Position numbers and translations under genes: made by a program. A DNA stretch of 64,000 bases from NCBI RefSeq assembly GCF_964213995.1, contig NW_027590164.1, positions 868,001-932,000 on the forward strand, given 5' to 3'. Positions 15,705-49,371 of this stretch are shown here, piece by piece. The notes under the pieces were generated by a model. It was not told the origin of the DNA. It saw only the letters and a program-made list of their open reading frames with translations, and searched no databases. Every line of letters begins with the position of its first letter. The first letter of the stretch is position 1. The stretch comes from Mustelus asterias (Eukaryota).

Positions 15705-15980
15705 ATAATGTGAAAAGTGGCTATGGGAACACGGTTCTCTGCATCCTCCTACAGGTACAACTCTGACGGATGGAGACAAGTCTTGGGAACTGGAAAAGAA
15801 GAAGTGATATTTGAAAGCTCATTCTACTGATGCATTGAAAATAGATATCAAAACCTGCGCAGCATACACTGTCGATCCAATATTTTCCGTTTCAAGATCC
15901 TGCTGAATACAGATGTTTATAGCCCAGCATATTTATGCATTATATTATCTCTCTACCTCACAGAACCGTTGAGTAATGTT
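15705..15980 (-). other. Endogenous viral element: L capping-domain HR-motif fragment between oppositely oriented minisatellite arrays (paralog 33235-33570)
   Basis: Paralog reads LH/RFYE (1-nt gap), ~36 codons later SIHFQ, then HSVPCSGGCRE (cf. HR...IHFQ...HxxCxxC). Confidence 0.5.
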
Positions 15981-19290: not shown

Positions 19291-19666
19291 TAGGGTCCAG
19301 TGTAGTATTTATTGAGGCAGTGCCTTCTTCATGTAATGTAAACCATCAAGGTGCCAATTCCATCTGCTGGCAAAATTCTGCAATTACAGTTACTGTAAAT
19401 ATATCGCTGTCAGGTATGATTTATGCGAGTAATATACAAAGAATTCACATTCATAAATGTAATACCACATCCCCTTCTGCGGAAAGTGCCCAAATTTAAG
19501 GTGCAACGAATTATAGATTAGATGTACGTTGCTGAATAATACAGGTTAAGTTGTGTCCCGCAGGAATCTGTCTTGAGGTCTCAATTATTTACAATATTCA
19601 TAACGGCTTAGATAATGCCACAAAAAGTCAAATAATCCAAATAATAGATCAAGGTAGTTTTTAGAA

Positions 19667-20021
19667 GGCACGGTAGCACAGTGGTTAGCACTGCTGCTTC
19701 ACAGCTCCAGTGTCCCGGGTTCGATTCCCGGCTCGGGTCACTGTCTGTGTGGAGTTTGCACATTCTCCTCGTGTCTGCGTGGGTTTCCTCCGGGTGCTCC
19801 GGTTTCCTCCCACAGTCCAAAGATGTGCGGGTTAGGTTGATTGGCCAGGTTAAAAAAAAAATTGCCCCTTAGAGTCCTGGGATGTGTAGGTTAGTGGGAT
19901 TAGCGGGTAAAATATGTGGGGGTGGGGGTAGGGCCTGGGTGGGAATGTGGTCGGTGCAGACTCGATGGGCCGAATGGCCTCCTTCTGCACTGTAGGGTTT
20001 CTATGAATCTATGAATCTATG
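19667..20021 (+). mobile_element. Full-length young HE1-type V-SINE
   Basis: A/B-box tRNA head, V-domain, CR1-like tail GCAGACTCGATGGGCCGAATGGCCT, (TCTATGAA)n end; other copies 22283-22517(-), 23325-23652(-), 28375-28650, 30935-31420, 50065-50370(-). Confidence 0.9.
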
Positions 20022-20024
20022 AAA

Positions 20025-20725
20025 GTAAAATTTAGTGGATGCCGAGCGAGATTTGGGTGTTCAAGTGAATAGCTTCTTAAAATGCCACGAACTGATGCAG
20101 AAAATAGTCAAGCAGGTCAACGGAATTCTGGCCTTTGTATCTAAAGGACCGGAGTATAGCGATGCAGATGTTATGCTGCAATTATGCAAAATCCTGGTTA
20201 GAGCCCACCTGGAGTACTGTGCACAGGTTTGGGCACCACACCTTTGCAAAGATTTTAGTCCTGGAGGGAGTTGAACGCACGTTCACAAGAATTAGCCCTG
20301 GCCTTTCGGGGTTAAGTTGCGAGGAGAAATTAGACAAATTGGGACTTTTCCTCTCGAATTCAGAAGGTTGAGGGGTGTTCTGACAGAAATCTACAAAATA
20401 TTTACGGGTCGGATCGGGCGGATCAATAAGTTGAAGGCTCTAGAATAAAGGGCCATAATTTTAAAAAAAACAGGGCCAAGCCGTTCAGGAGAGTTGATGG
20501 AAAGTATTTCTACGCACAGAGAGTGGTGGACTTTTGGAATTCTCTTCCGCAAAGGCCAGTGGGTGCTGGTTCAATTGTTAGATTTATCTCTGAGATCGAT
20601 TTTTTTATTGAACAGGGGTATCAAGGGATATGGGCCAAGCGCAGGTACATAGGGTTTGGCCACAGATCAGCGATGATCTTATAAATGGGGGCCGAGTTCG
20701 AGAAGCTGAATGGCATGCGTCTGCT
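20025..20725 (+). mobile_element. CR1 3' fragment
   Basis: ERDLGV...LVRAHLEYCAQVWAP. Confidence 0.85.
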
Positions 20726-23700
20726 TTTTTTATTCATGCTTGGGACATGGGCTTCGCTGGCTGGTCAACATTTATTCCCCATACCTAGTTGCCCTTGAGA
20801 AGGTTATGGTGAGTTGCCTTCTTGAATCGCTGCAGTACATGTTCTGTGCGTAGACCCACAATGCCGTTAGGGAGGAAATTTAAGGATTTTGACTGAGCGA
20901 TTGTGAAGGAACGGCGATATATTTCCAAGTCAGGATGGTGAGTGGCTTGGAGGGGAACTTCTGCTCCTATGTTCCTATGATGCCAGGTCAGCATCGAAGC
21001 ATAATGCCTCAATCCATGGTAATGTATGTTTGTTCATTTTGGTTAGAAGGAGGAATGCTGACCAGGGCGCTGTTGGAGACAATGGGACCTTTAATGTTCA
21101 GTTCAGCAAACATGGTGCTGGGGAAAATGTATTTGTTCTTCATTCCATCTGAAAGATAGTTGGGGTAATTGTCTCTTAAGCCCCCCAGGAAGCAAAGATG
21201 GAGTCTTAAGTTGCAGGAAAATGTGTGTGTGTGTGTGTGTGTGCGTTGTCTGAAAAACGTCATATTGTTTACAAATCAATTTCACAATGATAACCGGCGT
21301 CCTTCCATTTAAAATAAAAAATAGACACAGAGTGAACACATCAATTTCAGAGTGGTTTCTTTTTCAAATGTCACCTTTGTTGATGACTGAGAAGGACAAT
21401 TTTTGAGAGGTTGGCTCTGTTACAAATGCTGCCCATGAAGCTACCAATTGTGGTTTTATGTTGTCGTTTTCTGTGTCATGAATGAGACCGAGGAGTCCTG
21501 ATGGAGTGCGACTTTTTCCCAAGTATGGTAGTCCCTGCTCTCCTACCGGTGTTGAATGTCTTGATGAGATTGATGAAGGTAAAGATAGGTACATTGGGAA
21601 CATGAAGCAGATATTTTCCAGAGTCAATCTTCCATTAAAAACACAACATTGTGCTTCAGGATAATCCGGATCTTCAAACAGATGAATGTTTTCAGATGTG
21701 TCACTGGCAATGATGTATATATATCTATAGTTGTTGCAGTGTCCTCTGGCGGCTTTTTTTCCGGGTAGTGTTGTGCTTTTGAATCAAGCATCTCCTGTGG
21801 AGTGCATCCTATCTTCCATTAAGAAAGAGAAGATCATAAATATTCACAGAATTGGTATTTATTTTCACCAATTGCCATCCATTCACAAAGTTGCATAATT
21901 TTGTACGCCAGTTACCAACCATTCATAGACATTAATATATTTACGTTTTAATTTAAGTGATGTGATCGTTGCTGGCTAGGTCAAAAGTTGTTGCCGATCC
22001 CTAATTGCTCTTAGTAAGCTGGTGGTGAGCCACCTTCGTGAATTGCTGTGAAGCCTGTGGTGTATGTACTCACACAGTGCTGTTACAGAGGGTGTTCCAG
22101 GATTTCAATCGAGCGACAGTGAAGGAAGGGCGATATTTTTCGAAGTCAGCTCTATGACTGACTTGGAGTGGAATTTACAGGTGATATTCCCAGGTAACTC
22201 TTACCCCTGTCCTTCCAACTGGTAACAGTCCTGTGGTTGGAAGGTGTTGCCTAATGAGTTCCTGAAGTGAAACTTGTAGATACTTAGAAACTTAGAAACC
22301 TAGAAACCCTACAGCACAGAAAGAGGCCATTCGGCCCATCGAGTCTGCACCGACCACAATCCCACCCAGGCCCTACCCCCATATCCCTCCATATTTACTC
22401 ACTAATCCCTCTAACCTACGCATCCCGGGACACTAAGGACAATTTTTAGCATGGCCAATCAACTTAACCCGCACATCTTTGGACTGTGGGAGGAAACCGG
22501 AGCACCCGGAGGAAACCGTAGATGGTGTATAATGCTGCTGTTGTTTGTCGGTGGTGGAGGGAGTGAGCATTTGCAAATGCTATGCTAGTCAAGCCGCCTG
22601 CATTTTCCTGAATGCTATAAAGCTTTTTGAATGTTGTTTGAGCTGCACTCATTCAAGCAAGTGGAAAGAACTCTATTACACTCCTGAGTTGTAGTTTTAT
22701 AGGTGGTGGACAGGTTTGGGGAGTCAGAAGGTGATTTACTCACAGCAAGCTGACCTGATATTCCAGCCGGAGCATTTATATATCGAGTTAGTTCAGCGAT
22801 TAGCCAATGGTAACCCCGACGATGTTTATAGTGGGTGATTCAGTATCGTAATATAATTGAATGACAAGGAGCAATGGGTAGATTCTCTCTTTTTGGAGAT
22901 GGTCATTTCCTGGCGCTCATATTACTAATAATCTCCAAATCACAAGAACAAATAAATATTTCACAAATTATTTTCAGCATTTTATTTGGTACAAATATAA
23001 TTGCAGTTTATTTATTGTAGTTTATTGAGATTCAAATTTATTGAGGTCACTTTGGCCTTTCTGTCACCAAAGAATCAAATCTGTCCCAGAATTCACTGGG
23101 AAGTTGAATTAAATCACACCGAGGATAATGAGCAGCTACCCAGCAGCCTCTGCGCTTTATTGACACGTAATCACCTCATCATCACACATAAATCCCTGAT
23201 ATATAACTGGAGTGTGTAACCATTTTTAAAGTGACTGTACAACTGAAAGGACCTGTATCTAATGTTATATATAATTTATAATATCGAATCTGACGGTATA
23301 GAATCTTAAGATCCAAATTAATTATTCATAGAACAACGAATCTACAGTGCAGAGTGAGACCATTGGGCCCATCGAGTCTGGAACGACCTGAATCCTACCC
23401 AGGCCCTATTCCCGTGACCCCTCATATTAACCCCACTAATACCCCTGACACAAGGGTTAATTCAGCATGGCCAATCAACCTGAGCTGCATATGTTCGGAC
23501 TGCAGGAGGAAACTAGAGTACCCGGAGGAAATCCACACAGACAAGGAGAGAAACTGCAAACTCCACAAAGACAGTGACCTGAGGACGGAATTGAACCCGG
23601 GTCCCTGGCGTTGTGAGGCAGCAGGGCTAACCAATATGACACCGTGCCGCCCTTGCACACTTACACAGTATTGGAAAGTCATTTACCACTTGGATCTGTC

Positions 23701-23849
23701 CAGTGAGTTTCACAACATTTCAATTGCCTCATTATTTTGTTAGCCTATTACCTTCGCTAATTTAGGTGATGATATGTTGAGTGATTTGTTGCACTAGAAA
23801 GGGCCATATGTTCCAAATATTACAACCTAATCCCTTTTTCCATCTTGGA

Positions 23850-24432
23850 TTTGAAGAATTTGAAGACATCGGTGAGGCTACACTTGGAATGCTGTGTACA
23901 GTTCTGGTCACCCTATAATAGAACGGATATTATTAAATTAGAAAGAATGCAGAAAAGTTTTACTAGAATGCTACGAGGCCTTGATGGTTTGAGTTGTAGG
24001 GAGAGACTGGATAGACTGGGACTTTTTCTCCGGAGCGTAGGAGGCTTGGGGGGGATCTTATAGATGTTTATAAAATAATGAGGTGCATAGATCAGCTCGA
24101 TAGTCAATATATTTTCCCAATGCTGGAGGAGTCTAAAACGAGAGGGCATAGGTTTATGATGAGAATGGAGAGATACAAAATGGTTCAGAGGGGATATTGT
24201 TTCACACAGAGTGTGGCAAGTGTCTGGAACAGGCTGCCAGAGGTAGTGGTAGAGGCGGGTACAATTTTGTCTTTTAAAAAGGGTTTAGACAGTTACATGG
24301 GTAGGATGGGTACAGAGCTTTATGGGTCAAACGCGGGAAATTGGGACAAGCTTAATGGTTAATAAAAAGGGCGGTATGGACAAGTTGGGCCGAAATGCTT
24401 GTGTCCATGCTCTCAACCTCTATGACTCTATG
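23850..24432 (+). mobile_element. CR1 3' fragment
   Basis: VRLHLECCVQFWSP...TRGHRF; (CTCTATGA) tail. Confidence 0.85.
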
Positions 24433-24539
24433 GCTCGAGTCACTGTCAGCAGACGGAAAAAAAATCAAACTGCTCCTCGTTCATTTGTTCCCGATATCTC
24501 GGGGATTGGATTCACTGAGAAAATCTGGAAGGACTAAAG

Positions 24540-26560
24540 GTTGTCGCACAGCATAAAGGTCAAGCACAGCATTAAAACAAAAGTAAAAGCATACAAAGCA
24601 GCAAAGATTAGTGGGAAGCCAGAGGATTGGGACGCATTTAAAAGCGAGCAGAGGACAACTAAAAAAGCAATAAGGGGGGAGAAGATTAAATATGAGTGTA
24701 AGCCAGCTAGTAATATAAAATAAGACAGGGAGAGTTCTTTTCAAGATAAAAAAAGGTAAGAAAGATGCAAAAATTGACATTGGACCACTGGAAAATTAGA
24801 CTGGAGAAGTATTAATAGGAAACAAAGCAATGGCAGAGGAACTGAATAGTTACTTTGTATCAGTCTTCACGGTGGAAAACACCAGTGGAATGCCAGAGCT
24901 CCAGGAGAGTCCGGGGGCACAGGTGACTGTAGTGGCCATCACTAAGGAGAAGGTTCTGGGGAAATTGAAAGGTCTGAAGGTGGATAAATCACCTGGACCG
25001 GAAGGACTACACCGCAAGGTTCTAAAAGAGATAACTGAGGAAATTGTGGAAGCATTGGTGGTGGTCTTTCAGAAATCACTGGAGGCAGGGAGTGTACCAG
25101 AGGACTGGAAAGTAGCGAATGCAACACCACTGTTTAAGATGGGAGGGAGGCAGCAGACGAGAAATTGTAGGCCGGTTAGCCTGACTTCCGTCATTGGCAA
25201 GACTTTAAATTCCATTATTAAAGATGAGATCGCAGAGTACATGGAAGTGCATGATAAAGTAGGACTGAGTCAGCACAGTTTTCTGAAGGGGAGGTAATAT
25301 CTGACACATCTGTTAGAGTTATTTGAGGAGGTAGCAAGGAAGTTAGATAAATGAGAGCCAGTGGACATAATTTATTTAGATTTCCAGAAGGCCTTTGACA
25401 AGGTGCCGAAAAAGAGACTGTTAAATAAGTTAAGTGCACATGGTGTTAAGGGTAAGATCCTGTCATGGATAGAGGATTGGTTGATTAGCAGAAGGCAGAG
25501 AGTGGGAATAAAGGGGTCTTTCTCAGGATGGCAGCCGGTGACTAGTGGTGTGCCTCAGGGGTCAGTGCTGGGACCACAACTTTTCACAGTATGCATTAAC
25601 GATTTGGAGGAAGGAACTGAAGGCACTGTTGCTAAGGTTGCAGATGATACAAAGATATGTAGAGGGACAGGTAGTATTGAGGAAGCAGGGGGGCTGCAGA
25701 AGGGCTTGGACAGGTTAGCAGAGTCAGCAAAGATGTGGCAGCTGGAATTCAATTTGGAAAAGTGTGAGGTTATGCTCTTGGAAGGAGGAATGGAGGCATA
25801 GACTATTTTCTAAATGGGAAAATGCTGAGGAAATCAAAAATACGAAGGGACTTGGGAGTCATTGTCCAAGATTCTCTTAAGGTTAAAGTGCAGGTTCAGG
25901 AAGGCAAATGCAATGTTAGCATTCATGTCGAGAGGGCAAGAATACAAGAGCAGGGGTGTACTTCTGAGGCTGTACAAGGCTCTGGTCAGACCCAATTGGA
26001 GTATTGTGAGCAGTTTTGGGCCCCATATCTAAGGAAGGATGTGCTGGCCATGGAAAGGGTCCAGTGGAGTTTCACAAGAATGATTCCTGGAATGAAGACT
26101 TGCTGTATGAGGAACGGTTGAGTCCTCTGGATCTGTACTCGTTGGAGTTTTGAAAGATGAGGGGAGATCTTATTGAATCTTTCAGGATACTGCGAGGCCT
26201 GGATAGAGTGGGCGTGGAGAGGATGTTTCAACTCGTAGGAAAAACTGGAACCAGAGGGCACAACCTCAGACTAAAGGGACGATCGTTTAAAACAGAGCTG
26301 AGGAGGAATTTCTTCAGCCAGAGTGTGGTGGATCTGTGGATCTCTTGCCGTAGAAGGTTGGAGGCCAGGTCATTGGGTGTTTTTAAGACAGAGATAGATG
26401 GGTTTGTGATTAATAAGAGGATCAGGGGTTATGGGGAAAAGGCAAGAGAATATGGGTGAGAAAAATATCAGCCATCATTGAATGGCGGGAGCAGACTCGA
26501 TGGACCGAGTAGCCTCATTCTGCTCCTATTTATTATGTCTTATGGACTTATGGTCTTATA
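24540..26560 (+). mobile_element. CR1 ORF2 RT fragment with 3' end
   Basis: DKSPGP, YLDFQKAFDKVP, SGVPQGSVLGP, ADDTK. Confidence 0.95.
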
Positions 26561-29302
26561 CAATGACACACTTGGAATAAAGGACCTTCTTCTATTTTTG
26601 AAGTAGTAAATCACAAATATGCGAATGTAGAACAGCAAATTTTAGGACCAGCTATCATCACATCCATCCGTCCACTCTCTGATTTCTCAATCAAAACATT
26701 CAGGCATCCAACTATCGTTCATCCCTGCATCAACGCAAGTATTCCTTTATTGTTGGGTAGATGGTGGCGTAATATTAATGCCAGTGTACCAGCAATCCAG
26801 AAGCCCAGGCCAATGATGTGGAGACACGAGATTAAATCCGACCCTGGCAGCTGGTGGAATTTGAATTCAATCAATAAATCTGGAATACATACTGACAGCG
26901 ACCAGATTATCCTCTCTGATTCCCCAATGAAGGAAATCTGCCATCCCTACCTGGTCTCATCAGGATGTGACTGCAGACGGACAGCAATATAACTAACTGG
27001 GCAATGCCTTCTGAGATGCCCTAGCTTAACACTCAGTTCAAAAGAAATTAGGGAAAGGGAATAAATGTTGGCCTTTCCAGAGATTCTGACGTCCCATGGA
27101 AGAATGAAGTGAAAGAAAACACAAGCATACATGTTTATCTAGTATAAAATATATCACCTCTCTGAATCAACTCTCATAATCTGCCGGTATTTTTTTTATA
27201 TCCATGCATCAATGTTTTGTTGTGTTGGAGAGATCATTATTGTTGCTAACAAGGTGCCAGAGAAGCTGAATACTTTCTTTTCCGAAGAAATGGGAAACAT
27301 TCATAGATGTTTGCAACTTAAAAATAATTAAATTGCCTCCAGTACTGTTGCTGGGTAGATTTGTTTATAAATAGGCCCCATTGACAATGCTGAGAGTTTG
27401 AAGTTGGCTTGCAGCCAAGTGTTCAGTACTGAGGAAACAGCTTTTTGATTTACTGAACAAACACCCTCAGATGCTTCCTGTAAATATTTTTGGGTATTTG
27501 GCAGCAGCCTGGACAGTTGCCAAATACTGCGTAGGACAGATTAACGTGAATCTGTAAGGATAACATGGGACTTAGTCAGTTATACAATAAATGTTTTATT
27601 CCCAAAAGGAAGGCACATTTTAAATGGTTTTTCTTCTAAGCAAATATTTTAAATGAATGCACTTTTCATTCTGTGATCAAAAAGTATCGGAAACTAGTCA
27701 ATTGACTTGATGCTATTTCATTTGTATAGCTTCCAAAGAAATGTCCTTCCAACAATTAAAGCCTCTTTATGAACAACTTATGCTGATGTCCCCAATCCCT
27801 CAGTCCCATGAGATCAGTGTAAAGGCACAAAAATGAAAATAATTAAAAGTAAAAGAAAATCATATATCTCCCTTGAACAGCAGGGATTTCTGGAATATTC
27901 TCAATGTTCTGCACCTCATTAAAAACTTATACCTGATGTATAACGTGTTCTTTTGTCCAGCATAATCTGATTTCAATGATTTAACAGTCCCTCTCATAAC
28001 TGCCAATGAGTGAAGAAATGACCAGTTCATAACCTGGTTCAGTGAAAGATAAAATATTTATTCTTGTGATATTGTGCATTATGCCGCAAAGTCCTGATAT
28101 CTTGTGTTCCCAATACCAGCTGCTCGCCAATAAAATGAACTGTCATGATTTGGATGCTGAAGGAGAACTTTCCTGATTGCCGTGTCCGTTCTAATTCATT
28201 AGCTTCTTTGTCAAAAGTCAATGTCAATTTTATGTTTCTCTGTCAACTCAATGCTTAATTGTAAGTCAAGAAGTTTTCTTTCACCGTTAATTTTCACAGG
28301 GTTAAGGAGCTGTTGGGGAAATATAATGTTTAACATTGTATCAGATAAGGAGTTTATTTTGTTAATTTTTTCATGGGCGGCACGGTGGCATAGTGGTTAC
28401 CATTGCTGCTTCACAGCATCAGGGACCGTGGTTCAATTCCCGGAATGGGTCACTGCCTGTGTGAAGTCTGCACATTCTCCAATTGTCTGCCTGTTTATTC
28501 CCATTGTCCAAAGATATGCCGATTCGGTTGATTGGCGATGATGAATTGTCCCATACAATCAAGTGAATTAGCAGGGATGGGAACAGGGCCTGGCTAGGAG
28601 CGTTGTCGGTGTGGGCCCGATATGCTCCTAATGCACTGCAGGGATTCTATGGATATGGGTGCTGCTGGCTGATCAATATTTATTGCCCACCCATTGTCGA
28701 GGGCAGTTGAGAGCTAAACACATTGCTGTGGCCCTGCAATCACATGTAGGCTAGATGAGGTAAGGACGGCATATTTCCTGCTCGAAAGGACATTAATGAA
28801 CCAGATAGGTTTTTACACAATCGACAATGATATCATGGTCATAAGTAGATTCTTAATTCCAGACGTTTTTACTGAATTTAAATTCCACCACCTGCCGTTC
28901 CGGGATTCGAAGCCGGGTCCTGAGAACATTAGTTGAGTTTGTGGATTAATTGTCTCGCAATAATAGCGCTGGGCCACTGCTTCCCTCCTTCTTATATCCA
29001 GTCCCAAATTACAGTGATAGCTATCCACACCTGAAACACAATCATCCCAGCATTAAGTTACATAAATCGATAATAATTCTTCTAATGAATTATCTTTCGC
29101 TGTAATGTGTCAGAGACACAGAATCATTGTAAATCAGACTGACGGCTTTACCCTGATAAGGTAATGTCATCTGTTTATGTCCATTCCCTTGTGAAGGGGT
29201 GCAGAAATAAAGGCACTTAATTTACAATGAAATTGTTTCTTTTCTGTAACAGATGCTCAAATGCAATTTCACCTCTTGGACGAGCAGAGACATGACAATG
29301 GA

Positions 29303-30237
29303 TCTCACTGTTACTCCCTCGGGTTAGTCTGTCTCTGGAATGTTCCATTGTCAGCAATCAATTCACCGGGAATAACCCTTGGTGTTTTTGATATATTTCA
29401 TTTGATTTCATTTGACTTATTATTATCGCATACATGAGTACACAGTGCAAATTATTGTTTCTTGCGCACTGTACAGTCAGAGCATAACGTATATAGGGAA
29501 GGAAGGGAGAGAGTGAATAATGTAATTTTGCAGTCATAGCTGGGGTGTAGAGAAAGATGAACTTAAGGCGACGTAGGTCCATTCAAACGGCTGATTGCAG
29601 CAGGAAATACATTGTTTTTGAGTCGGTTTATACGTGTCCTCAGACTTTTGTATCTTGTTCCCGATGGAATACGGTGAGAGAGTATGTCCGGAGTGCGTGG
29701 CGTTTTATTTTCAGAGGACTTTAGATATTTTTACAAGTGTCGAATCGGAGGTTGTGTTGAGTCAGCGAGAGGCAGAAAGTGGGCGCCCCTGAAACTCTTT
29801 GAGACTGATCTGCAAAGCCAACGCGTTCAATATTGGCAGTAACTGGATGGTCTGGGTCCGACAGGTCCACGAACAGTGGTTACAGTGTCTTCTTCAGTAC
29901 GATAGTCTTGGGTCAACCTACATTTCCTCCACCCCAGGGATTGAGAATCAATTTACTCCACCCAAAGACACTTCAAACAACGGAAAGAGAAAATGCTGGA
30001 AAATCTCAGCAAGTCTGGCAGCATCTGTTAGGAAAGAGAAGAGCTGACTTTTCGATTCCAGATGACCCTTTGTCAAAACATTCGAAATGTCAGCTATTTT
30101 CTCTCCTCACAAATATTGCCAGGCCTGCTGAGATTTTCCAGCATTTTCTCTTTTGGGTTCAATTCCAGGATCCGCAATAATTTGATTTTATACTTTAAAC
30201 GACATCTTCTCTTTGGAAATAAGTGGAAACCGAAGAT
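29303..30237 (+). pseudogene. IGHV: Truncated IgH V pseudogene (leader-intron remnant 29303-29398; V exon 29737-30237)
   Basis: EVVLSQREAESGRP*NSLRLICKANAFNIGSNWMVWVRQ...KDTSNN[210-bp insert]IFSLEIS..TED; acceptor AG>AA at 29735-29736, TGA at 29790, no YYC or RSS, promoter and leader deleted. Confidence 0.9.
29982..30191. mobile_element. Fold-back (Penelope-derived/MER6-like) element inside the pseudo-V
   Basis: Inverted arms AAAATGCTGGAAAATCTCAGCA / TGCTGAGATTTTCCAGCATTTT; TSD acttcaaacaac 29970-29981 vs actttaaacgac 30192-30203. Confidence 0.85.
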
Positions 30238-31928
30238 TTCTATCTTCACCCTATCTGTCCTACATAGACTCCAATTCTACTATGATGAAAATGACTTCTA
30301 ACCACTACTGAAATTGCCAGGCATGCCAGTCAGTTGTCTCAAAGCTGCTATGGAGAAACAAATAATAAAATCATCCAGAGGGCAGGTTTCAACCAGGTGG
30401 TTCACACCCGCCTTCTCAGCAGGGACAACTAAATGTTGGCTTTGTCAGTGATGCTCACATCCAGAGGATCAATAACAACAGTGTAAAGTGCTGCCGATTC
30501 TGGAAATCTAAAACTAAAGCAAAACAAATGCTACTCAGCAGGTCAGTGTGCATCAGCAGATAGAGAACAAGATTCACATTTAAATTCAATGCCAGGATGC
30601 AAAATCTCATTGATATAATTCTAAAGAGCAAGGCTGTTCTCCTCAATATCCTACCTTAATACTGATTCTTCAAACAAAATCACAAATTTACTGGCAATTT
30701 ATCACATCTCGGTTTGTGGGAGTTTGTTGCACGTACATTACCTGTTGTATTAGCAACATGATAGCGGTGACTAAATTCAGCAAAGGTACATTAGTGAGTT
30801 TTAAGAACTTTGGGACTACATGAAGTCGGGTAAAGCGTTCTATAAATGTAAGCTCTACCAAAATGAAAGTTGCAATACGTTGGAAGTGCTGAGAGATTAA
30901 TGCGAATATATTCATTCCTCTGCCTGATCATAGCAGCATAGAATCATAGAATCCAGTGTAGCGCAGTAGGAGGCCATTAGGCCCATCAAGCCTGTAGCTG
31001 CTTTCCAGCAGCGCATCCTATCCAGGCCCAAGCCTTCACCCTACCCCGACAACCTCACATATTCAGAGGCTAATGACTCTAACCTACACATCGTTGGCCG
31101 CGAAGGGGCAATTTAGAATCTCCAATCCACCTTGGGCCTGGGAATGATGCCCTGCTGGACAGCTGGTGCAGACTTGATGGACCGAATGGTCTCCTTCTGC
31201 ACTGTCGGGATTCTGTGATTCTACGTTACTCACCCTTGGACTCAAAGGAGCAATTTATCGTACCAATCCACCTAACCCGTACATCCTTGGACTGTGGAAG
31301 GAAACCGGAGCACCCGGAGGAAACTCACATGGACATGGTAGAATGTGAAAAACCACACACAGTCAGCCAATGTTGGAATCGAACCCCCTTCCCTGTCACT
31401 GTGAGGCAGCAATGCTACTTGTATCACTTAGTGATAACCACACTGGATTTTTTATTCTTCCCTCGTGGGAGTCTGCTCACTAATTGTGACAGGAATATTT
31501 CACACACCAGTTCTCTTTGTTTTAACTTGACTAGTTGAAGCAATTTAGATCATCACTCAAATTAACATTCAGTGGAATACCAATCTGTTCACAGATATTT
31601 TATTTACTGTGACATCAGAACTTGCAGAACAAATTCTTAAATAGAATGTATTTATTCATTTAATAAAGAGCATCTTGTGTAATGTATGTTAAAAATGTTT
31701 CTATTCATTTTGAACCAACTGTTAATATTCTTAAAATAATCGCTATTTTGAGTTGAAACTAATGAATAAGTGACGGTTTATCTGTTTTTGCTGCCATGAA
31801 CATTTTATTGTAAACAGTGAGGAGCTTATGTAAATAAACACAGAAATAGAAATCCCAGATTAGATTGTTGACTGACAAAAACACAACAAATATTTCCCCA
31901 CCAACACAGCACAGAAATAGAGACAAAC

Positions 31929-31936
31929 ATGCAAAT
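31929..31936 (+). promoter_or_regulatory. Octamer ATGCAAAT in conserved block, ~9.4 kb upstream of the leader ATG
   Basis: Exact octamer within a ~92%-identical paralogous block. Confidence 0.5.
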
Positions 31937-34565
31937 CGATCAACGGATTCCAGAAATTGTTGTTTTTATACATTATTTATTCAGCAATTATATGAGGGAA
32001 AAAATCATGACAATATCTATGTTCAGAATTAAGAAAGGATCCCGAAATATAATAACACGAAAAATGTGTTCGTGGAAATTCCCTGTGTTTCATCTCTGTC
32101 TCTGGCTTTCTCCTTCTGGTTCTGAGTCTTGTCTCTTCACGATAGTTCATCGTCTTCACTCCACAACCTCAATTCAATGTTGCCCAATGTATTCTCTCAG
32201 CCAGAGTTGTAAGGAATGCAATGCAATGAATTGGAATCCGTGAGGGAGATTTACTCTAAAGGATCTCTTGAACATTCTATGATCTTGGGATATTTTATAC
32301 ATTTTCCTCTGTATCTAACCTGTGTTGTACCTCGTAAACAGGATTCGATGTGGCAGTACAAAAGAAATTTTCCTTGTATTTATGCCTGCCCTTGGACTGT
32401 TTGACTGGACGGTGTAGAGGAATATTTACTCTGCATCTAAACTCACGTACCTGCCCTTTGAATGTTTGATATTACTTGCAAAGGGAGATTTAATCCGTAT
32501 CTAATCTCTGCTGTACCTGACCTGGGTGTATTTTATGGGACTGTGTAGAGGGATCTTCCCCCTCTACCGAACACCAATTCAAACTTGCCTCCCGAATCTC
32601 TGAAGGAAAAATGCAGAAGTGGTTTTACCTCGAAGAGAGTCCCTTGTCTGTATGCCTTCATTGTATTCGAGCAGACATTGTAGAGGGGGTTTCACTCTGT
32701 TTCTAGACAGTCTACCTTTTCCAGGAATGTTTGATTTTGATAGTGAGAGGGAGGGTCACTTTGTATCTCAATCATGCTGTTCCTGCCTTGGGAGTGTTAA
32801 ATTTGGCAATGCAGGGGGAACTTTACAGATAACCCCATGTTGCTCCTGTCCTGTGAATTTTTGATGGAGCAGTAGGCCGTCTCTCCAGATTTCATGGGGA
32901 TTGAACCAGTCTCTTTATTAGACAGTAAATTTACCCTGTGTCAGCTTCTATTATATAAGGTCATGCCTCGGTTTATGTTGCAGTGGACCCTATCTCTGCA
33001 CATAATAAACGAGGTGCTTTCTCTGATTCTACTAAATTAGACCTTGACCCTGTTTATATTATACATCAACATGTTTCAGCTTATATCAAACTAGACGCTG
33101 TATCGTTTTTTATTAATTTAGACCTGTCTCTGTTTGTATTAAACTATTTGGAGCCTTATTTCTGCATTTGACCCTATCCACGTTTATATTGCATTGGACA
33201 TGGTCTCAGTTTTTATTGCACTGGACAATGTCAGTAATGAGGAAAGTGTTTCGGGGGACACAATTCTCTGCATCCTCCTGAACATGGAACGCTATGAGGT
33301 CTTTGGCACTGGAAAAGAAGCAGTGTTATCTGAAATCTACTTCTGCTGACTGCATTGAAAATGGATACTAAGACCTGTATAGCATGCACTGTCAACACAG
33401 AACAAAGAACAAGAAAAGATACTGCAGAGGAGCAGGCCCTTCAGCACTGGAAGCCCGCACCGACCAAATACTGTCGATCCACTACTGCCTGTTTCAGAAT
33501 CCTGCCAGAGATCACTGTTTTTCATCCAACATAATATCTCTTCTTCTCGTAGAACCGTGGAGGAATGCAGACATCATTCAAATAGAGGCAAAGTTAAGTG
33601 CAGGCATAACACTGACACAGTCTAGTGAAATATGTACAGGGTCAGGATCAAATATTACTTAACCAGCGAGTGTGGCTCGTGCAATATAAACTGATTTCTA
33701 GTCTAGCAGTGTATTAACAGAGACAGACTCTAATTTAACATAAACGGGGTCCTGATCCAGCAAAATAGAAATGGGTTTGTTCCGAGTGCCATGTAGGGAT
33801 GGTCAAAGGCCAAATGCTGATCTTTTCAGTGACATCCATATCCCATGAAACAAACATTACAAATATATATGACAATGTCGAGGAAAATAAAACTGAGACA
33901 CTGTCTCGTGCAGTTTTACTGGACATAGGAGTTCGGCATATAAACTGAGACAGAGCCCGGTAATTAATGATACTGGACCTAAATTTCTTTAGACTGAGAC
34001 GGAGTCAAGTGCATTAATAATAATTACTAATAGATACAGGGCAGTGACAGATGTAAACTGAGACCAATGTATTAGTAATGATTACTGATACAGTATCTAG
34101 ATTGATGTAAACTGAGACAGAGTCCAGTTTATTTGTAATAATTACTGGTACAGGCCTAGACTGATACACACTGAGATACGGACAATGCAGCAATTAGGAG
34201 ATATTGCAACATGCAATTATAGCTGAGACGTGACATAGTCTTAAATAAATAAATACATGGACTGGTGCAGCATTAACGTAAACAGGATCGAGTTTATCAA
34301 AATCTAATGAACTATTAGCATAATAACTGTGACAGAACCATGTGTCATGCATGAAACAGTTGCTCCAGTTTAGTATGCAGTGGCAAATGTTCTGAGGCAG
34401 TAAGAATCGAGACACGGCCTCTTATCAGATCAGCAGAAGCATGGTTCAGTACAGCCATAACTTAGAAATTATAATATAAACAGGGCCTGTGTCTCATATA
34501 CGAACACCTGATATTGAGCCAAGCGCAGGAAATAGCTTAGACATGACCTCCTGGAATATGATCCA

Positions 34566-35258
34566 CGTAAGAAGTCTCACAACACCAGGTTAAAGTCCAA
34601 CACGTTTATTTGGTAGCAAATACCATAAGCTTTCGGAGCACTGCTCCTTCGTCAGATGGAGTGGAAATGTGCTCTCAAACAGTGCACAGACACAGAAATC
34701 AAGTTACAGAATACTAATTAGAATTTGGCTATCAGTTTCTGCTCAGCGACTCTGCGCTGTCGTGTGTCGTGAAGGCCGCCTTGGAGAACGCTTACCTGAA
34801 GATCCAAGGCTGAATGCCCGTGACTGCTGAAGTGCTCCCCCACAGGAAGAAACTGATAGCCAAATTCTGCTCACATGAGGACGGCCTAAACCGGGACGTT
34901 GGATTTATGTCACACTATCAGTAACCCCCAGAGCTTGCCTCCTGGGCTTGCAGAATCTCACTAGCTGTTCTGTCTGGAGACAATACACATCTCTTTAACC
35001 TGTGCTTAATGCTCCCTCCACCACATTGCCTGTACCTTTAAGACCTGGGTGGCTTTAGGGATTCGCATTCTAATTAGTATTCTGTAACTTGATTTCTGTC
35101 TCTGTGCACTGTTTGAGAGCAAATTTCCCCTCCATCTGACGAAGGAGCAGTGCTCCGAAAGCTTATGGTATTTTCTACCAAATAAACCTGTTGGACTTTA
35201 ACCTGGTGTTGTGAGACTTCTTACTGTGTTCACCCCAGTCCAACGCCGGCATCTCCAC
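34566..35258. mobile_element. Penelope-like element with inverted pLTRs and GIY-YIG C-terminus
   Basis: Minus strand LPVGEHFSSHGHS...RRVAEQKLIAKF, plus strand KLIAKF...GLNRD; inverted arms; perfect TSD ATATGATCCA at 34556-34565 and 35259-35268. Confidence 0.9.
35132..35168 (+). ncRNA. Minimal hammerhead ribozyme motif (inverted twin at 34623-34659)
   Basis: ccat-CTGACGA-a-GGAGC-agt-GCTCC-GAAA-gctta-tgg: core, stem II, palindromic AAGCTT stem III. Confidence 0.7.
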
Positions 35259-36329
35259 ATATGATCCAGGCACAGCCTACTGTAATACAGACAGAGGCAG
35301 AGGCTAGCTGAATATAGGCAGAGATATGGTATGTTTAAAATTGTTGTGATTTTGATGTCACTGGCAAAGTCAGCTTTTGTTGCCAAACCATGAATTCCTT
35401 TGAGAATGTGGTGGCAAGCTTTGGGAAGCTGGTGGGTGGGGTGTTCTTCGAGTCAGCTACTTTCTCCAGAATGACATTGAGCTTTTGAGTGGCACAAGTC
35501 AGGCAAGTAGAGAATATTCAATCATCTGTGTCGGCACAGACTTGGTGGGCCGAAGGGCCTGTTCCCGTGCTTTACTGTTCTGTGATATTTGTTCACACTC
35601 CAGCCTTTTGCCTTGTCGATGATGGATAGGAGTTGGGAATTCAGGAGGTGCGTTGTTCACAGCAGAACTCCGAGCGTCTGACCTGCTCCTGTGGCCACAT
35701 GATTTAAACGTCTGTCTCCGTTCAGATTTTCACGAATTATAATTCATAGGATGTTGATAGTGGGCGAATTCAGCGATGGGTAATGCCATTTAATGTCATG
35801 GGGGTTGGTTTGGAATCTCCCTCATTGGAGACTGTCATTGCCTGCCACTTGTGGTGCATTAATGTTCCTTGTCATTCGTTAGCCAAACACTAAATGTTTT
35901 CGAAGTCTTACTGCATATGGACACAGACTGTTTCAGTATCTGAGGAGCCGCGACTGGTGCTGAACTATGTGCAATCATCAGTGAAAATCCCACTTCTGAA
36001 ATTTGATGAAGGCTGAAGCTTGGGGCTAGGTCACCAACCTGAAGAATTCCTGCAGCAATGCGTGTGACTGGCATGATTGGCCATCAACAATCATCTTCCT
36101 TTGTGCTCAGTATGACTCAGGCAGTGGACTCTGTTCCCCCTGATTCCCATTGACTGCAGTTTCGCTCGGGCTCCTTGATGCCACAAACGGTCAGACGCTG
36201 CGTCCATGACAAGGGCAGGCACTCTCTATTCATCTTTTTAATTTATTTTTTAAAATCCATATTTGGGCTCTTTCCAAATCATTTCTGGAATCGAGTGCTC
36301 CTTGCGGGTCCCAAATTGAGCATCTTGGT

Positions 36330-39300
36330 TTGTGTGTGTGTTGTGTGAAATACATCGTGTTTGATACAAATTAATTCCACAATGATCACGTGCATCCTTC
36401 CATTTACACTGCATGACGGACACACAATAAACACATCCAATTCAGATTGGCTTCCTTTACATATGTCACCTTTTCTGATGATTGAGGAGGCCAATTTTTG
36501 AAAAGTTAGTTCGGCCACAAGTGCTGCCCATAAAGCTACCATTCGTCATTGTGTGTTATTGTTTTTGTATCATGAATGGATATTAGGAGCTTTGGTGTAG
36601 AACCAGTTATCACCAAAATCCTGTATTCCTTGCCCTGCTGACGGTGGTGAATGTCTTAGCGAGATTGACCGAAGTACGTTAAAGATATGGACATATATGG
36701 AACATGGAGAAGTTGTTGGCTGGAGTAAATCTTCCAATACAATCACTAAACTGCACATCAGATATACCCGGTCTGCAAGCAGATGATGTATTTCAAGTGT
36801 GACCCCAGCAAAGATCTTTCCCGTGATGTTATGACTGAGATATGCCTATAGTTGTAACAGTCTCTTCCATCGGTTTAGTTTGCAAAAATGTGTGATAAAT
36901 TTGAATCATGCATGTCTTATGGAATTGTGGGTGCCATGGTTGCACAGTGGTTAGCTCTGTTGCCTCACAGTGCCAGGGCCACTGGTTTGGTTCCCGGCGT
37001 GGGTCAGTGTCTGTGCGGAGTCTGTACATTCTCCCCGTTTATGCGTGGATTTCTTCTGGGTGGTCCAGTTTCTTGCACAAGTCCGAACAGGCATGCTGGT
37101 AATGTGCACTGGCCAGGCTAAATTCTCCCTCAGTGTACCCGAACAGACGCTACAGTGTGGCGACTCGGGGATTTTCACAGTGACTTCAAAGCACTGTTAA
37201 TGTAAGCCTACTTGTGACATTAATAAATGAACTACAAACCTTAAATCTTCCAGCAAATAAGGAGAATGTCATAAATGTTCAGAAAGATAGTAATTATTTT
37301 CACTAATGACCGTCCATTCACAATTTAATAAATGCATTCACCAATTCTCATTCATTCGCAAAGGTTAGTCTATTTAAAATTACTTTATGGAAGGTGGGTG
37401 ACTGTCTAAGCTATAATTTATTTCACATTGCTAAGTGCATTCGGTAAGCTGGTGGTTAGCCGCCTTCTTGAACCGCTGCACAACCTGCAGTGTAGGTACA
37501 CCCACAGTGCTGTTAGGAAGGGTTCTCCTGCATTCCGACCCAGCGACAGTAAAGGAGCGGTAATATATGTCCAAGTCAGGTTTATAAGCGTCTTGGAGGG
37601 GAATATCCAGGCGGGGTAGTTCAAATTCATCAATTAACATCAATTAATACAGATAAACAATTATTTCACCAATTATATTCAGCACTTTAATAAATGCAAA
37701 ACATGGCGGATTCTGGAAACTGAAACAAAAACAATAAATTCTGAAAATCTCAACAGGTCTGACAGCATCTGTGATGAGAGAATAGAGTCAAAGTTTCGAA
37801 TCAGGATGACCCTTTTTTTATTTGGAGAAAATTGAAGAGGGCGATGGCATTGGGAAATGATGAGGGTGGAAAGGGATTAGGAAGTTTCTTTAGGATATAG
37901 TTAGTGATTGAGACGTTGATTAGGTTAGTTAGCATGGTTAAGTTGATTATGATATTTGGGATCGGTATGTACGTTGATGCAGCTTGTGTGTGGCTCGAAA
38001 TAGTGCATATAATTAAACAGTGCCTATTTGAACTATTCACATCTCACAAGAAAGTTATGCAGCTTGTCTGACACCTTGTTGGATACAATGATAATCTCCC
38101 CAACGCATTAGGAATACTCTGCCGAAGCGTCATCCAGACTCGAAACGTTGGGTCTATTCTGTCTCCACAGATGCTGTCAGATCTGCTGAGATTTTCCAGC
38201 ATTTTCTGTTTGTTCTCAGTATTTCATTCTGTACAACTTTGCTTTGAATAATTTATTGATATTAACATTTCTTGACATTGTATTGGCCTTTTTGTCACCA
38301 AGGATAAAAATCTGTCCCAGAATGCAGTGGGAAATTCAATGAATTCAGACTGAGGATCATGAGTCGCTACCCAGCAGTCTCTGCGCTTTAAACTCCTGAT
38401 ACATAACTGGTGTGATGATTTCCAAAGTAATGATATGAATTAAACTACCTTGCACCTAATATGATTTTACTGAATTTTTAAATTGCGATTCATTATTACA
38501 TTGTTTTGGGAAATAATGTAACACTTGTAGTTGTCCAGTGAGTTTCACAATATGTCTGTTGCCACATTATTTATTTTACAGCTTGTTACCTTCACTAATT
38601 TGGGTGAGGGCATGTTGAGTGATTTGCTGCACATGTTTCAAATATTACAATCCTCCCTCCTCAGCCAAATCATGTCCCCTCTTTCGATCTTGGATATGAA
38701 TATTCAGCATCAGCAGAGAAATGAACCATCCGTGCCGCAGCAAAATCCCCTCTTCTTTTCGTGAGGATCAGTTTGCTAACTCCCGAGAAAATCGGGTTTG
38801 ATTTCACCCAGACCCTCTGGAAGCATTGAAGTTATTAGGCTGACAGAAATGGAATCAAGGAACGGTTTCAATTTATGAACCAGTCAAGTACAAATCTGGG
38901 AATGTGGAACAGCATCTTTCAGTACCATTTAACAATGCATCCATCAATCCGTTCACTGATTCCTCAATCAAAATATTCAGCCATCCAACTGATAGTCATT
39001 TCATTCATGCCACGGTCATTCATTCCGTTATCAACACAGTCATTCATTTATTGTTTGCGCAGATGGTGACGTAATATTAATTGAAGTGGCCCAGTGATCC
39101 AGAGACCCAGGACAATGATGTGGGGACAGGGATTTAAATAGGAGCATTGCAGCTGGTGGAATTTGAATTCAATAAATAAGGAACAGATACGAATGGCGAC
39201 CATCGGACCCTCTCTGATTCCCCAATGAGTGAAATCTGCCATCGCTACCTGGTCTCACAAGGATGTGACTCCAGATGGACAGCAAAATAGCTGACTCCTT

Positions 39301-40600
39301 CATATGTTCAGAAGTGGCCTAGAAAACCAGTCAGTTCAAGGGAATTTGGGACAGACAAAAAGTGCCGGTCTTTGCATCCAAACATCCCATGGAAAGATAA
39401 AGGGAAAGAAAATACAAACATACATGTTCATGTATCGTCTCTCTGAGACATTTCTCAGTTTGCCTGTAATTCTTTCTATCCATCTATCACAATATCCTGA
39501 TGTGTTGGAAAAATCATCATTGTTGCTAACAGGGTGCCAGAGAAGCTGCATGGAATTCCTTTCATTAGAGATGGGCAAAATTCATCTAGATTTACAACTT
39601 TAAAAAAGTAAAGTGCCTCCAGTACTGTTGCTGGGTAGATTTATTTATAAACAGGCCTGATTGACAACGTGAAGGGTTTGAAGTTGGCTTGCAGCCAAGC
39701 GGTCAGTACTGAGGAAACAGATCATTGTTCTGCTGCACAACACCCCCAGATGCTTCCTGTCAATAACTTTGAGCATTTGGCAGAAGGCTGGATTGCTGCC
39801 AAATACTGTGTGGGACAGATTAGCGTGAACCTAAACGGACAAAATGGGATTCAGCCATTTAAACAATAAATGTTTCATTCGCACAAGAAAGACACATTTT
39901 AAATCGTAATCATTCTAATCAAATATTTTCATTCAATGTCCTGTTCATTATGTGAGTAAATAGTATCGCAAAACAATAAAGTTACCAGATGCTTTTTCAT
40001 TTGTATAACTTCCAAGTAAATGCCATTCCAATAATTAAAGTCAGTTTATTAACCACTTCATGAAATGCGAGAGAGAGATGTTGATGGTCCCAATTCCCCA
40101 GTCAATTGAATTCAGTGCAATGGCATAAAATGCATCGAAATCATATTAAGGGAACATCATAAAACTGACATGAACAGCGGGAATTCCTGGAATATTCTGA
40201 ACGTTCTGTATCGCATTTAAACAGCAGCGTCTCTTGTACCTGATTAACACCCTATTCTATTGTACAGTATAATCTGATTCCTGTTATTGAAGAGTTCCAA
40301 TCATAGCTGCCAATAAGTGGAGAAATGATCAGTTCATAACCTGATTCAATGGAAGATAAAACATTTATTCTTGTGATATTGTGCAATGTGCCGCAAAGCC
40401 CTGATATCTTGTGTTCGCAATACCAGCGAATGTTAGAGCCGGTGGCCGATAGAGTGACCTGCAATGATCTGGATGCTGAAGGAGAACTTTATTGATCTCC
40501 GTGTCCGTTCCATTCATTAACTTCTCTGTCAAAAGTCGAGGTTAATTTTATGTTTCTCTGTCAACTCACTATTTAATTATCAGGAGGGCGGGATTCTTAT
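36330..40600 (-). other. Long decayed Mononegavirales L gene, copy 2, directly upstream of the functional VH promoter
   Basis: In L order from high to low coordinate: ISGLCG...INVLSSIE (~40330-40412), LGSYTNEKA (~39990-40016), VRLGSR*...SSLLPNAQSY...DLFPQ (39705-39840), WIERITGKL (~39460-39485), GEIKPD (~38800), ITQHALT (~38610), DPQSE (~38350), S(R/W)gKIFAGVT (36798-36826). Confidence 0.75.
37692..38214. mobile_element. Fold-back Penelope-type element carrying a ~300-bp L-like viral insert (37815-38118)
   Basis: Arms ~37705-37812 and ~38119-38214; absent from the paralog near 22975; degenerate TSD ttcagcactttaat / ctcagtatttcatt; insert reads IPNALGRLSLYPTRC...ILKKLPNPF on the minus strand. 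Confidence 0.75.
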
Positions 40601-41099
40601 TATTTTCAAAGGGCTGTCTTCGAGATTGGGGTCGTTTGACAAATATAAGGAGAAACATTGTATTGTGTGAGAGTTTCTTCTCATCTCCAAACCCAAACTG
40701 TACAGTGATAGGCATCCACACTGTAAATGCAATCACTTTGTTCATACCCCCTCATTTAGTTACAGAAATCGGTAAAACTTCTTCTGATAAATGATGCTTT
40801 ATTATTGTGATGTGACAGAGACCCGGAATTGTTGCAACACAGACTGACGGTCTCTTTATTTTCCACAAATGTTATTTCATCATTTTCAGATTTGTGTTCT
40901 TCTTGGGGGCGTGGTAATAAAATCACCATATTTACAATGGAATTAGTTATTTTAAATAAAGAAATGATGAACTGCAATATCACCATCAGAAATAATGGAG
41001 ACAATACAATGGACATATTCAGCCAAACAAATATCCCGATACAGATAAAATGTCCATTTTAATATTAACCTATTGTAAATCTGGAAGTCCATTCTGTTG

Positions 41100-41285
41100 G
41101 GTGTGGAAGGTGGGACCTGGATCCAGTCGCCGCCTCCAGAAGGGAATCAACAGGCGGCGCCTGGAAAGCCGCCCCCTGCTGCCGGGTATTTAAATGACGC
41201 TCACCGGGACCGGAATCCAACAGTCCGGGAGCTGGTTTGTTCACTGAGTTCCTGACACAACCATTTCCCCCAATTTACCAGAAGG
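41100..41285 (+). promoter_or_regulatory. VH promoter: GC box, TATA-like TATTTAAA (41187-41194), TGACG half-CRE (41195-41199), no octamer
   Basis: Motifs read directly ~90-100 bp upstream of the ATG. Confidence 0.65.
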
Positions 41286-41331
41286 ATGAGGTCGGCGATT
41301 ACTCTCAGTTTGTTGCTGACTTTCTTATCCG
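41286..41331 (+). CDS. IGHV: IgH leader exon MRSAITLSLLLTFLS
   Basis: ATG, hydrophobic signal peptide, phase-1 GTGAGT donor. Confidence 0.95.
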
Positions 41332-41463
41332 GTGAGTAGTTATTTTTCATTGTCCAAGTCTCCCACAGTTACTGTCTCAGTTTTAGTCGATCTCTGTAAT
41401 ATTCCAGAGTCAAAAATCATTACACCAGGATTAATCCTCGGGTTTTTTGATCTATTTTTACAG

Positions 41464-41768
41464 GTGTCCAGACGCAGGTTTTGTTGACTCAGCCAGAGGC
41501 AGAGACCGGGCGTCCCGGAGGCTCCCTGACACTGACCTGTAAAACCAGCGGCTTCGCTCTTAGCAGCGCTTACATGTACTGGATCCGACAGGTTCCCGGG
41601 CAGGGGTTGGAGTGGCTGGTTTACTACTATAGTTCATCTGACAACAGCTACGCCCCAGCAATTAAGGATCGATTTACTGCGTCCAAAGACACTTCAAGCA
41701 ACATCTTCTCTTTGGAAGTGACGAGGCTGAAGACCGAAGACACCGCCATCTATTACTGTGCAAGAGAC
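41464..41768 (+). CDS. IGHV: Functional germline VH exon
   Basis: [27 protein letters not shown]...[13 protein letters not shown]...[11 protein letters not shown]; ttacag acceptor. Confidence 0.98.
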
Positions 41769-41807
41769 CACAGCGAGAGGAACTAGGGATGGACCCGAAC
41801 AAGAACA
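41769..41807 (+). other. VH 23-RSS
   Basis: CACAGCG - 23 nt - ACAAGAACA. Confidence 0.95.
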
Positions 41808-42179
41808 GCTCGAGAGGGAATTCAGCAACTTCCATCATAACCTGAAGGTCAGTGCTTGTTTTAAATATAACACTAACGACAGTGATCAGAACGAAAACAC
41901 AAACCGCTTCTGACAAACCCAACTTAGTGAAAATTAAACATTAAACCAAGAAAACACACAGACATAACGGGCTGAGCTTTTCACTCTGTTTATATTTACT
42001 GTTAACAGTTTCAGCAATTACACACCTGGATATAATGCTCGTTTTAGTATTTCTGACACTTGGAGGAGATGTTTTTAGATTGTGTTTTGTAAACTGTTGC
42101 ATGAAGTGTAAATTACATCACAAATAATGGTCTATTTGAAGTGAATATTGAGCGGCAGTACTGAACAGAAAGTAAGTGC

Positions 42180-42260
42180 AGTTTTTGTGCGAGTGTGTGT
42201 CACTGTGATACTACAGGGGGGTCACAGTGCTGAGCACAGCGACATCCTCATACAAAAACC
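42180..42260 (+). other. DH1 segment (42208-42222, ATACTACAGGGGGGT) with 12/22 RSSs
   Basis: AGTTTTTGT-12-CACTGTG; CACAGTG-22-ACAAAAACC. Confidence 0.95.
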
Positions 42261-42560
42261 TCATGGAAAGAGATTGTTCAAATTGGTAATCAGTACCACA
42301 GCAGGAGTTTCAAAGTAAACGAGGCTTCAGTGAAATAATGTGTGGAAGTAATGTTAGTTTGTGAAAAGGTATAAAAATCTTCCCATAAAATCTATATTTA
42401 CCGATATGCTAAATCTCCACAGAGAGTTTAAAAGCATTCCGATCCCCTTTATAAATACAATGACCAGGACAAGCTGAAATATCTCAGTCACTCGCTCGTG
42501 GATGAGGCAGAATCAGATTTTTGAGACAGCAGTGAAATTAAACAGTTAGCAGTCGGGCAC

Positions 42561-42629
42561 AGTATTTGTCATGCTGTGTCTCACTGTGATAACTGGGGTG
42601 GCACAGCAGTTACTGTCGATACAAAAACC
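42561..42629 (+). other. DH2 segment (42589-42601, ATAACTGGGGTGG) with 12/12 RSSs
   Basis: AGTATTTGT-12-CACTGTG; CACAGCA-12-ACAAAAACC. Confidence 0.95.
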
Positions 42630-42995
42630 CCTCAGCACTAATTGACCGAGACTGGGGCAGTGCTCTGTTTTCCAATCCAGCATTATTTACAGTGCTGTAT
42701 TATTTATGTCCCAGCACTACACAAATAGCGAGAATTAATATGGAAAATGTATGATAACTATTTGATTATCAGTTGGTGTTTTCAGTAACTTGATCATGTG
42801 ATCCTCTATGAAACATAAAACATTAAGGTTATTTACGAAGAGCGAACGGTATCCACCAGTGCAATAATAATTTCATGAACATGCAGTGATTTGCTTTCCC
42901 TCTGGCTTGTGAATTTTTAAAATACTGATGGATTTCTGTCTATTTTGTGCAGAGATGGTTATTGTATGACCCAGCCTCGAGAATGTGACACTGTG

Positions 42996-43043
42996 ACGCC
43001 ATGGGCTACTGGGGACAAGGGACCATGGTGACGGTGACTGCAG
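42996..43043 (+). CDS. IGHJ: JH segment AMGYWGQGTMVTVTA (23-RSS at 42957-42995)
   Basis: GGTTATTGT-23-CACTGTG, WGxG motif, GTAAG donor. Confidence 0.97.

Positions 43044-49340: not shown

Positions 49341-49371
<31 letters not shown>

Follow-up and report, generated by a model that had tools for sequence, protein, structure and literature searches.

Organization of the IgM locus

The DNA analysed here, a stretch of 64,000 nucleotides from Mustelus asterias (contig NW_027590164.1, positions 868,001 to 932,000 of the forward strand; the whole stretch is called the window, and coordinates refer to it), contains one unrearranged immunoglobulin M (IgM) cluster of the cartilaginous-fish type. An old tandem duplication lies upstream of the cluster, and near the start of its two units, A and B, a short non-coding block is found at corresponding positions. 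This block is the subject of the present analysis. It is conserved well beyond its surroundings, is repeated throughout the genome beside heavy-chain variable segments (VH), and is likely to be a distal B-cell enhancer of host origin. The features of the locus on which the argument depends are the following.

13678..29981, + strand: tandem unit A, with a block, upstream DNA and a VH relic that carries stops (29748-29981)
14598..14811, no strand assigned: copy A of the conserved block, lying 26.4 kb upstream of the intact VH promoter; octamer at 14787-14794
30240..41702, + strand: tandem unit B, with a block, upstream DNA and the intact VH
31741..31953, no strand assigned: copy B of the conserved non-coding block, lying 9.3 kb upstream of that promoter
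41178..41205, + strand: proximal VH promoter motif with TATTTAAA and without an octamer
41286..43043, + strand: leader, VH, D1, D2 and JH with recombination signals, unrearranged; likely target of the block
41464-41768, + strand: VH of the intact cluster (leader and VH together span 41286-41768; JH ends at 43043)
54206..57810, + strand: constant-region exons C-mu 1-4, with open frames

The two copies of the block are identical in 197 of 214 aligned columns (14598-14811 against 31741-31953; 16 mismatches and one gap), in agreement with a preliminary description of this DNA that had counted about 17 differences in about 214 positions by eye. The same description had reported that the neighbouring paralogous DNA is more diverged, and mean identity is indeed 74.8% over the 6,927 aligned columns of the duplicated unit outside the block. 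The identity peak has a binomial P of 2e-11 (1.6e-7 after multiplying by the number of windows), and none of 2000 column permutations produced a window that reached it. The block has an AT content of 65%. Elsewhere in the units, the window of 213 columns with the highest identity between A and B (40313-40525, 86.9%) lies about 0.9 kb upstream of the VH and is possibly regulatory too.

Copies of the block and their linkage to VH promoters

A 27-base core pattern searched with up to two mismatches gave 129 matches in the genome and none in reversed form, so that the block has at least 129 copies. DNA searches recovered 39 A-type and at least 40 B-type copies, and further fetches added families C to H. 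An identity peak confined to the two copies of the window, which the preliminary description had named as the mark of gene conversion, is therefore not what the genome holds; the peak is present in all families beside intact clusters.

The copies accompany VH promoters. A VH promoter pattern matched 64 IgM VH promoters in the genome, 48 of which have a listed copy of the block upstream on the same strand (median distance to the nearest, 9.3 kb). Many of them are preceded by two or three copies. The other 16 promoters, for which 19.5 kb upstream was read, comprise 13 with a whole or partial copy, one at a contig edge and two with none, bringing the promoters with a whole or partial copy upstream to 61 of 64. 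At the two promoters that have no block, the V lacks its first cysteine and there is no C-mu within 20 kb. A copy with an intact ATGCAAAT lies upstream of 53 of the 64 promoters. The block stands upstream of the VH in all linked cases, and no copy occurs in 43 stretches running from V to C-mu. The unit of block, upstream DNA and VH was duplicated in tandem with the block aboard, which left each cluster with one to three copies; multiplication of the clusters followed.

Contigs from six of eight organisms, one of which may be the same species as the window, align to the region. In four runs the summed contig depth is highest at the block, several long contigs have the block as their only aligned part, and the octamer has no listed change in two contig runs. 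Two further organisms (J and K) gave no contigs aligned to the region, which is no proof of absence, and the core pattern had no matches in a metagenome scan. The most divergent cluster examined (L108/L154/L174, VH 67% identical) has retained the two octamers, spaced 100 bases apart and just 3 kb from its promoter, and has one stop in the alignment of C-mu 4.

Evolutionary rate and the constrained core

Rates within the block were compared with those of its flanks on a tree built from the flanks, using 81 of 103 aligned copies (13 were dropped for short flanks and nine identical ones merged). The ratio of block to flank rate is 0.40 within family A (P 2e-6), 0.52 within D (P 2e-4), 0.74 within B (P 0.02), and 0.43 between five families (P 7e-10). 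As judged from these substitution patterns, the block is under selection tied to intact IgM clusters. The slow rate is centred on a core of 120 bases and, among the copies compared, is lost in most defective clusters. Within the core, individual sites differ in constraint (positions are those of copy B; expected numbers of changes are at the flank rate).

31827..31946, no strand assigned: most constrained core, 30-base windows with 0.50-0.70 changes per site (flank mean 1.27; 70 copies)
31828..31835, + strand: variant octamer ATGTAAAT, 5 changes against 10.2 expected (P 0.06); ATGTAAAT present in 81 of 103 copies
31843..31852, + strand: GAAATAGAAA, presumably a site like that of interferon regulatory factors (IRF) or the interferon-stimulated response element (ISRE), 3 changes against 12.7 expected (P 0.001)
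31888..31900, + strand: conserved site AAATATTTCCCCA, which we take to be forkhead-palindrome-like and Ikaros/ETS-like; 31888-31896 with 2 changes against 11.4 expected
31929..31936, + strand: consensus octamer ATGCAAAT, 1 change against 10.2 expected (P 4e-4); present in 93 of 103 copies

The variant octamer lies about 100 bases from the consensus octamer, on its upstream side, and in copy A the corresponding site reads ATGGAAAT (14685-14692). TTCCCCA, within the AAATATTTCCCCA site, is present in 88 of 88 copies of the intact-type families and in 5 of the remaining 15. The window is not enriched in octamers (three ATGCAAAT and one ATTTGCAT, against an expectation of about 2.6 each), so it is only through its conservation that the motif is of interest. 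The preliminary description had named ATGCAAAT, TAATGAAT and AAATAAACA as shared by the two window copies, and all three are (the octamer at 14787 and 31929); as key sites, ATGCAAAT is conserved across the genome but the other two, as written, are not the conserved ones. TAATGAAT is found in 37 of 103 copies and shows no constraint (10 changes against 10.2 expected), and AAATAAACA is found in 66, and both were set aside as key motifs in that form. A looser forkhead pattern is present in 86 of 88 and 13 of 15 copies. In one copy (L117) a 15-base tandem duplication beside the consensus octamer repeats most of the motif.

Loss of constraint beside defective clusters

The families in which the peak fades (E/F, G and H) sit in broken arrays. 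In the E/F arrays no VH was found in the 17-30 kb read downstream, in the G arrays the terminal VH carries stops, and in H the V heptamer is damaged. Seven three-way tests gave block-to-flank ratios of 0.64-1.55 on the suspect lineage against 0.35-0.74 on the intact lineage, the suspect lineage having the higher ratio in six of seven tests for the block and in all seven for the core. Where both V-D-J and C-mu were read, clusters are defective in 9 of 10 cases without an intact ATGCAAAT block and in 1 of 12 with one (nominal Fisher P 3e-4). Constraint on the block goes with a working immunoglobulin heavy-chain (IgH) gene, with one counter-example (L123/L161). Four related clusters (L098, L100, L102, L104 and L149-L152) have a block that is rearranged at the octamer and has lost its hairpin (described below); their V heptamer is damaged and their D segments are fused, although the V and C-mu frames are open.

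A candidate distal enhancer

On this evidence, the block is probably a host non-coding element that acts as a distal B-cell enhancer. The preliminary description had proposed a distal enhancer made from co-opted viral DNA. The enhancer part of that proposal agrees with the peak in all families beside intact clusters, with the evidence against conversion and with the relaxation beside broken clusters; the viral co-option has no support in any of the tests made, and viral ancestry is not needed for an enhancer. Oct1 or Oct2 together with OBF1 would bind ATGCAAAT and ATGTAAAT, assisted by proteins at the IRF-like and forkhead-like sites. The block would then contact the VH promoter 7-14 kb away, and this contact would open or transcribe the cluster. 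The distal block would in this way supply the octamer that shark VH promoters lack. The genome contains a three-exon match to the POU2AF1/OBF1 family.

Several results weigh against this interpretation. The rate ratio over the whole tree of 81 copies is only 0.74, and only three of the seven three-way tests have P<0.05 for the whole block, with intact references reused among them. The ten octamer-less clusters represent about five events, four of them in defective clusters, which inflates the Fisher test; of the 53 clusters that carry the octamer, only 12 had their C-mu read, and among all 53 a defect is found in four (L154, L191, L217 and L228). The cluster L161/L181 looks intact, with its signals, J, C-mu 1-4 and an open V, and its only copy of the block within 19.5 kb (L123) is without the consensus octamer and drifts at the flank rate, which counts against the block being necessary. 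The variant octamer has been lost in 18 of 30 A copies. Apart from the octamer, all motif labels are matches to consensus sequences in AT-rich DNA. Since many copies were first found through similarity to the block or through a pattern that contains the octamer, there is some circularity in motif tallies such as 88 of 88, and far less in the count anchored on promoters. Lastly, catfish and mammalian IgH enhancers rely on E-boxes, and the block has no conserved ones: a mu-E5-type E-box is present in none of the 88 copies of the intact-type families, CAGCTG, CAGGTG or CACCTG in none of the 103 copies, and any CANNTG in 2 of the 88.

The same constraint and linkage would fit equally well an IgM-linked DNA element that is not a transcriptional enhancer, such as a matrix-attachment, boundary or anchoring element or one that targets recombination or hypermutation. 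We regard this as the less probable reading, although a likelier one than the other alternatives. In its favour, the block is 65% AT and free of E-boxes, and A copies that lie 26-45 kb away, past a dead VH, stay constrained despite the nearer copy. Moreover, elements resembling immunoglobulin enhancers can target hypermutation with little effect on transcription, according to the excerpts of PMC3972084 used here. What favours an enhancer over such an element is the octamer itself: its consensus is among the least-changing letters of the block, and in the four copies where it has changed to a functional form (three of family F and L112) it has become the variant ATGTAAAT.

Gene conversion or a mutational cold spot as improbable alternatives

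Without any selection, the peak could have arisen from gene conversion between copies, which are tandem and spread over many clusters, or from a local mutational cold spot. Recent conversion, the alternative offered in the preliminary description, is already largely refuted. A comparison of 30 A with 30 B copies shows 11 fixed differences inside the block, and no polymorphism is common to the two sets. On a tree built from the block only, families A, C, E, F and G are each monophyletic, B and D fail solely through nested related copies, and the topology broadly agrees with that of the flank tree. That the families remain distinct inside the block argues against recent conversion, and A-specific letters within the block were also found in two different organisms, on loose contig ends. 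The basal branches of the block-only tree are short, and an ancient event before the expansion of the clusters could have contributed. The slow rate persists within families, and it vanishes beside broken clusters that had the same starting sequence, as a cold spot could not. We consider conversion or a cold spot an improbable explanation of the peak.

A possible structured RNA

Copy A contains a hairpin, which is the longest perfect + strand stem in the window.

14651..14688, + strand: G-U-rich hairpin of 17 pairs, unbroken in copy A but disrupted in copy B

Constraint might alternatively come from a structured non-coding RNA, or an RNA element, encoded on the + strand around this hairpin. 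The stem has a z score of -6.5 on the + strand against -3.0 on the other, in a 51-base window chosen after the fact. All 16 core pairs are intact in 65 of the 92 pattern-matched copies (of 103), and several one-sided changes keep a pair. However, the haplotype table contains no two-sided compensatory changes, and the hairpin, which lies just 5' of the constrained core, evolves barely more slowly than the flank (35 changes against 45.7 expected, P 0.06). In copy B of the window the stem is broken (z -1.1), and no Rfam family was matched at threshold, with chance-level matches only. Given the absence of two-sided compensation, the near-flank rate and the break in copy B, the hairpin is unlikely to be the selected feature, and we consider a structured RNA an improbable source of the constraint.

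The proposed viral origin

The preliminary description had derived the block from a viral methyltransferase gene, but an endogenous piece of such a gene, co-opted as an enhancer, is the least credible of the explanations considered, as the block gave no viral match in Pfam, the PDB, 1.84 billion proteins (compared with one frame) or viral contigs and no codon signal. What speaks for it is only that the reversed octamer spells D-L-H in one minus-strand frame, where copy A has an open stretch of 87 codons. The letters GAT-TTG-CAT, of part of which the octamer had been described as the reverse complement, are present on the minus strand, but no frame is linked to a viral protein; D-L-H is what the octamer spells backwards in one frame.

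All searches for viral proteins are limited by frameshifts. Neither the six frames of 13001-41500 (stops read as X) nor 30 shorter frames gave a relevant Pfam match, the scan returning just an unrelated LINE (long interspersed nuclear element) reverse transcriptase at about 25.2-25.8 kb and sub-threshold chance matches. A PDB search linked no frame of the region to a viral family, and an Atlas search gave no usable match. The frame named in the preliminary description, the sole one compared with the 1.84 billion proteins, matched two short singleton open reading frames, 73 and 37 residues long, whose sequences look like further copies of the block. One exact form of the core pattern was not found in viral contigs, and PF14314 and PF01660 had no matches genome-wide, although the controls were silent as well.

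The longest open frame in 13678-15056 (copy A) is 93 codons against 89.5 in shuffles, which is no excess. Copy B has a nominal excess (109 codons; 1.7% of shuffles; one of four regions tested), which copy A does not share. Codon-position bias was not detected in the block (P 0.22); the 3' flank shows nominal codon periodicity (P 0.02, one of six tests). Length changes between families are not multiples of three. A coding exon was also considered and rejected, as the block has no codon periodicity. Judged by these comparisons, a viral origin is unsupported, and nothing points to a very old insertion, although one might no longer be recognisable. With it the part of the proposal that would have been surprising, viral exaptation, falls away. 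Endogenous viral elements exapted as enhancers resemble the block only in being non-coding DNA with a possible regulatory role, and they differ from it in that no viral similarity or coding relic was detected here.

Relation to known immunoglobulin enhancers

One close counterpart is the catfish IgH enhancer E-mu3', whose core, in the excerpts of PMC1800861 used here, contains two variant octamers, including ATGTAAAT, bound by Oct1 and Oct2. Both are IgH-linked elements with two octamer motifs. The catfish enhancer, located 3' of C-mu, includes a mu-E5 E-box and has been shown to be active in tests (PMC1800861, same excerpts), whereas the block is a candidate element 5' of the VH, with one to three copies in each cluster and without a conserved E-box. 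Mammalian E-mu has octamer and IRF sites, and the block resembles it and the immunoglobulin lambda enhancer/diversification activator (DIVAC) in being a compact, conserved cluster of factor sites near an immunoglobulin gene, with octamer and IRF-type sites (PMC3972084, in the same excerpts as above). E-mu, however, is an element of the J-C intron that relies on E-boxes together with ETS sites; the block has no copy in the 43 V-to-C stretches. Since it departs from known IgH enhancers both in E-boxes and in position, being upstream of the VH and not in the J-C intron or 3' of C-mu, we class it as a candidate element that works like an IgH enhancer and not as a member of the E-mu or catfish E-mu3' kind.

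With the octamer of bony-vertebrate VH promoters the block shares the motif ATGCAAAT and its orientation relative to VH transcription. The promoter octamer adjoins the TATA box (within about 100 bases), while that of the block is separated from the promoter by some 9 kb (the window's two blocks are 9.3 kb and 26.4 kb away). The preliminary description had stated as known that shark VH promoters lack the octamer of bony-vertebrate IgH, and had seen none at 41100-41285, the proximal VH promoter. That interval is indeed empty, and shark IgH promoters lack the octamer in the excerpts of PMC2435157 used here. These excerpts also propose that the choice of a cluster follows from the rare formation of a promoter-enhancer complex, and reason that IgH factors differ from those of the light chain, since the IgH promoter has no octamer. 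The open-access literature searched describes no shark IgH enhancer, older subscription papers being outside its scope, and the excerpts of PMC9936319 used here do not treat enhancers of sharks either.

In each shark B cell, one or a few of the many self-contained IgH clusters become active. Speculatively, the block may be the missing shark IgM enhancer, a two-octamer module 9 kb upstream that travels with every cluster, and its one to three tandem copies might set the frequency of switching on, feeding heavy-chain exclusion among dozens of autonomous clusters. If so, the conclusion in the literature that octamer factors are not common to the heavy and light chain genes of sharks would be weakened. 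Since a single genome offers the 120-base core in intact, decayed and deleted natural forms, the question of an enhancer is directly testable.

Other features of the clusters and the window

Partly or fully pre-joined clusters (V-D, D-D, D-J or V-D-J) occur at L154, L155, L156, L157, L160, L161, L163, L164, L190, L192, L196, L201, L204 and L221. In the window, the J-C intron contains two pairs of duplicated stretches, 45261-45520 with 46566-46825 (79%) and 43402-43813 with 44034-44447 (70%), as well as octamer-type motifs at 44416, 46542 and 47247. Decayed fragments of LINE-type retroelements lie at 8332-11500 and 23900-26460, the latter including the reverse transcriptase match noted above (Pfam RVT_1), and long CA-rich and purine-rich minisatellites occupy 47900-53300 of the J-C intron.

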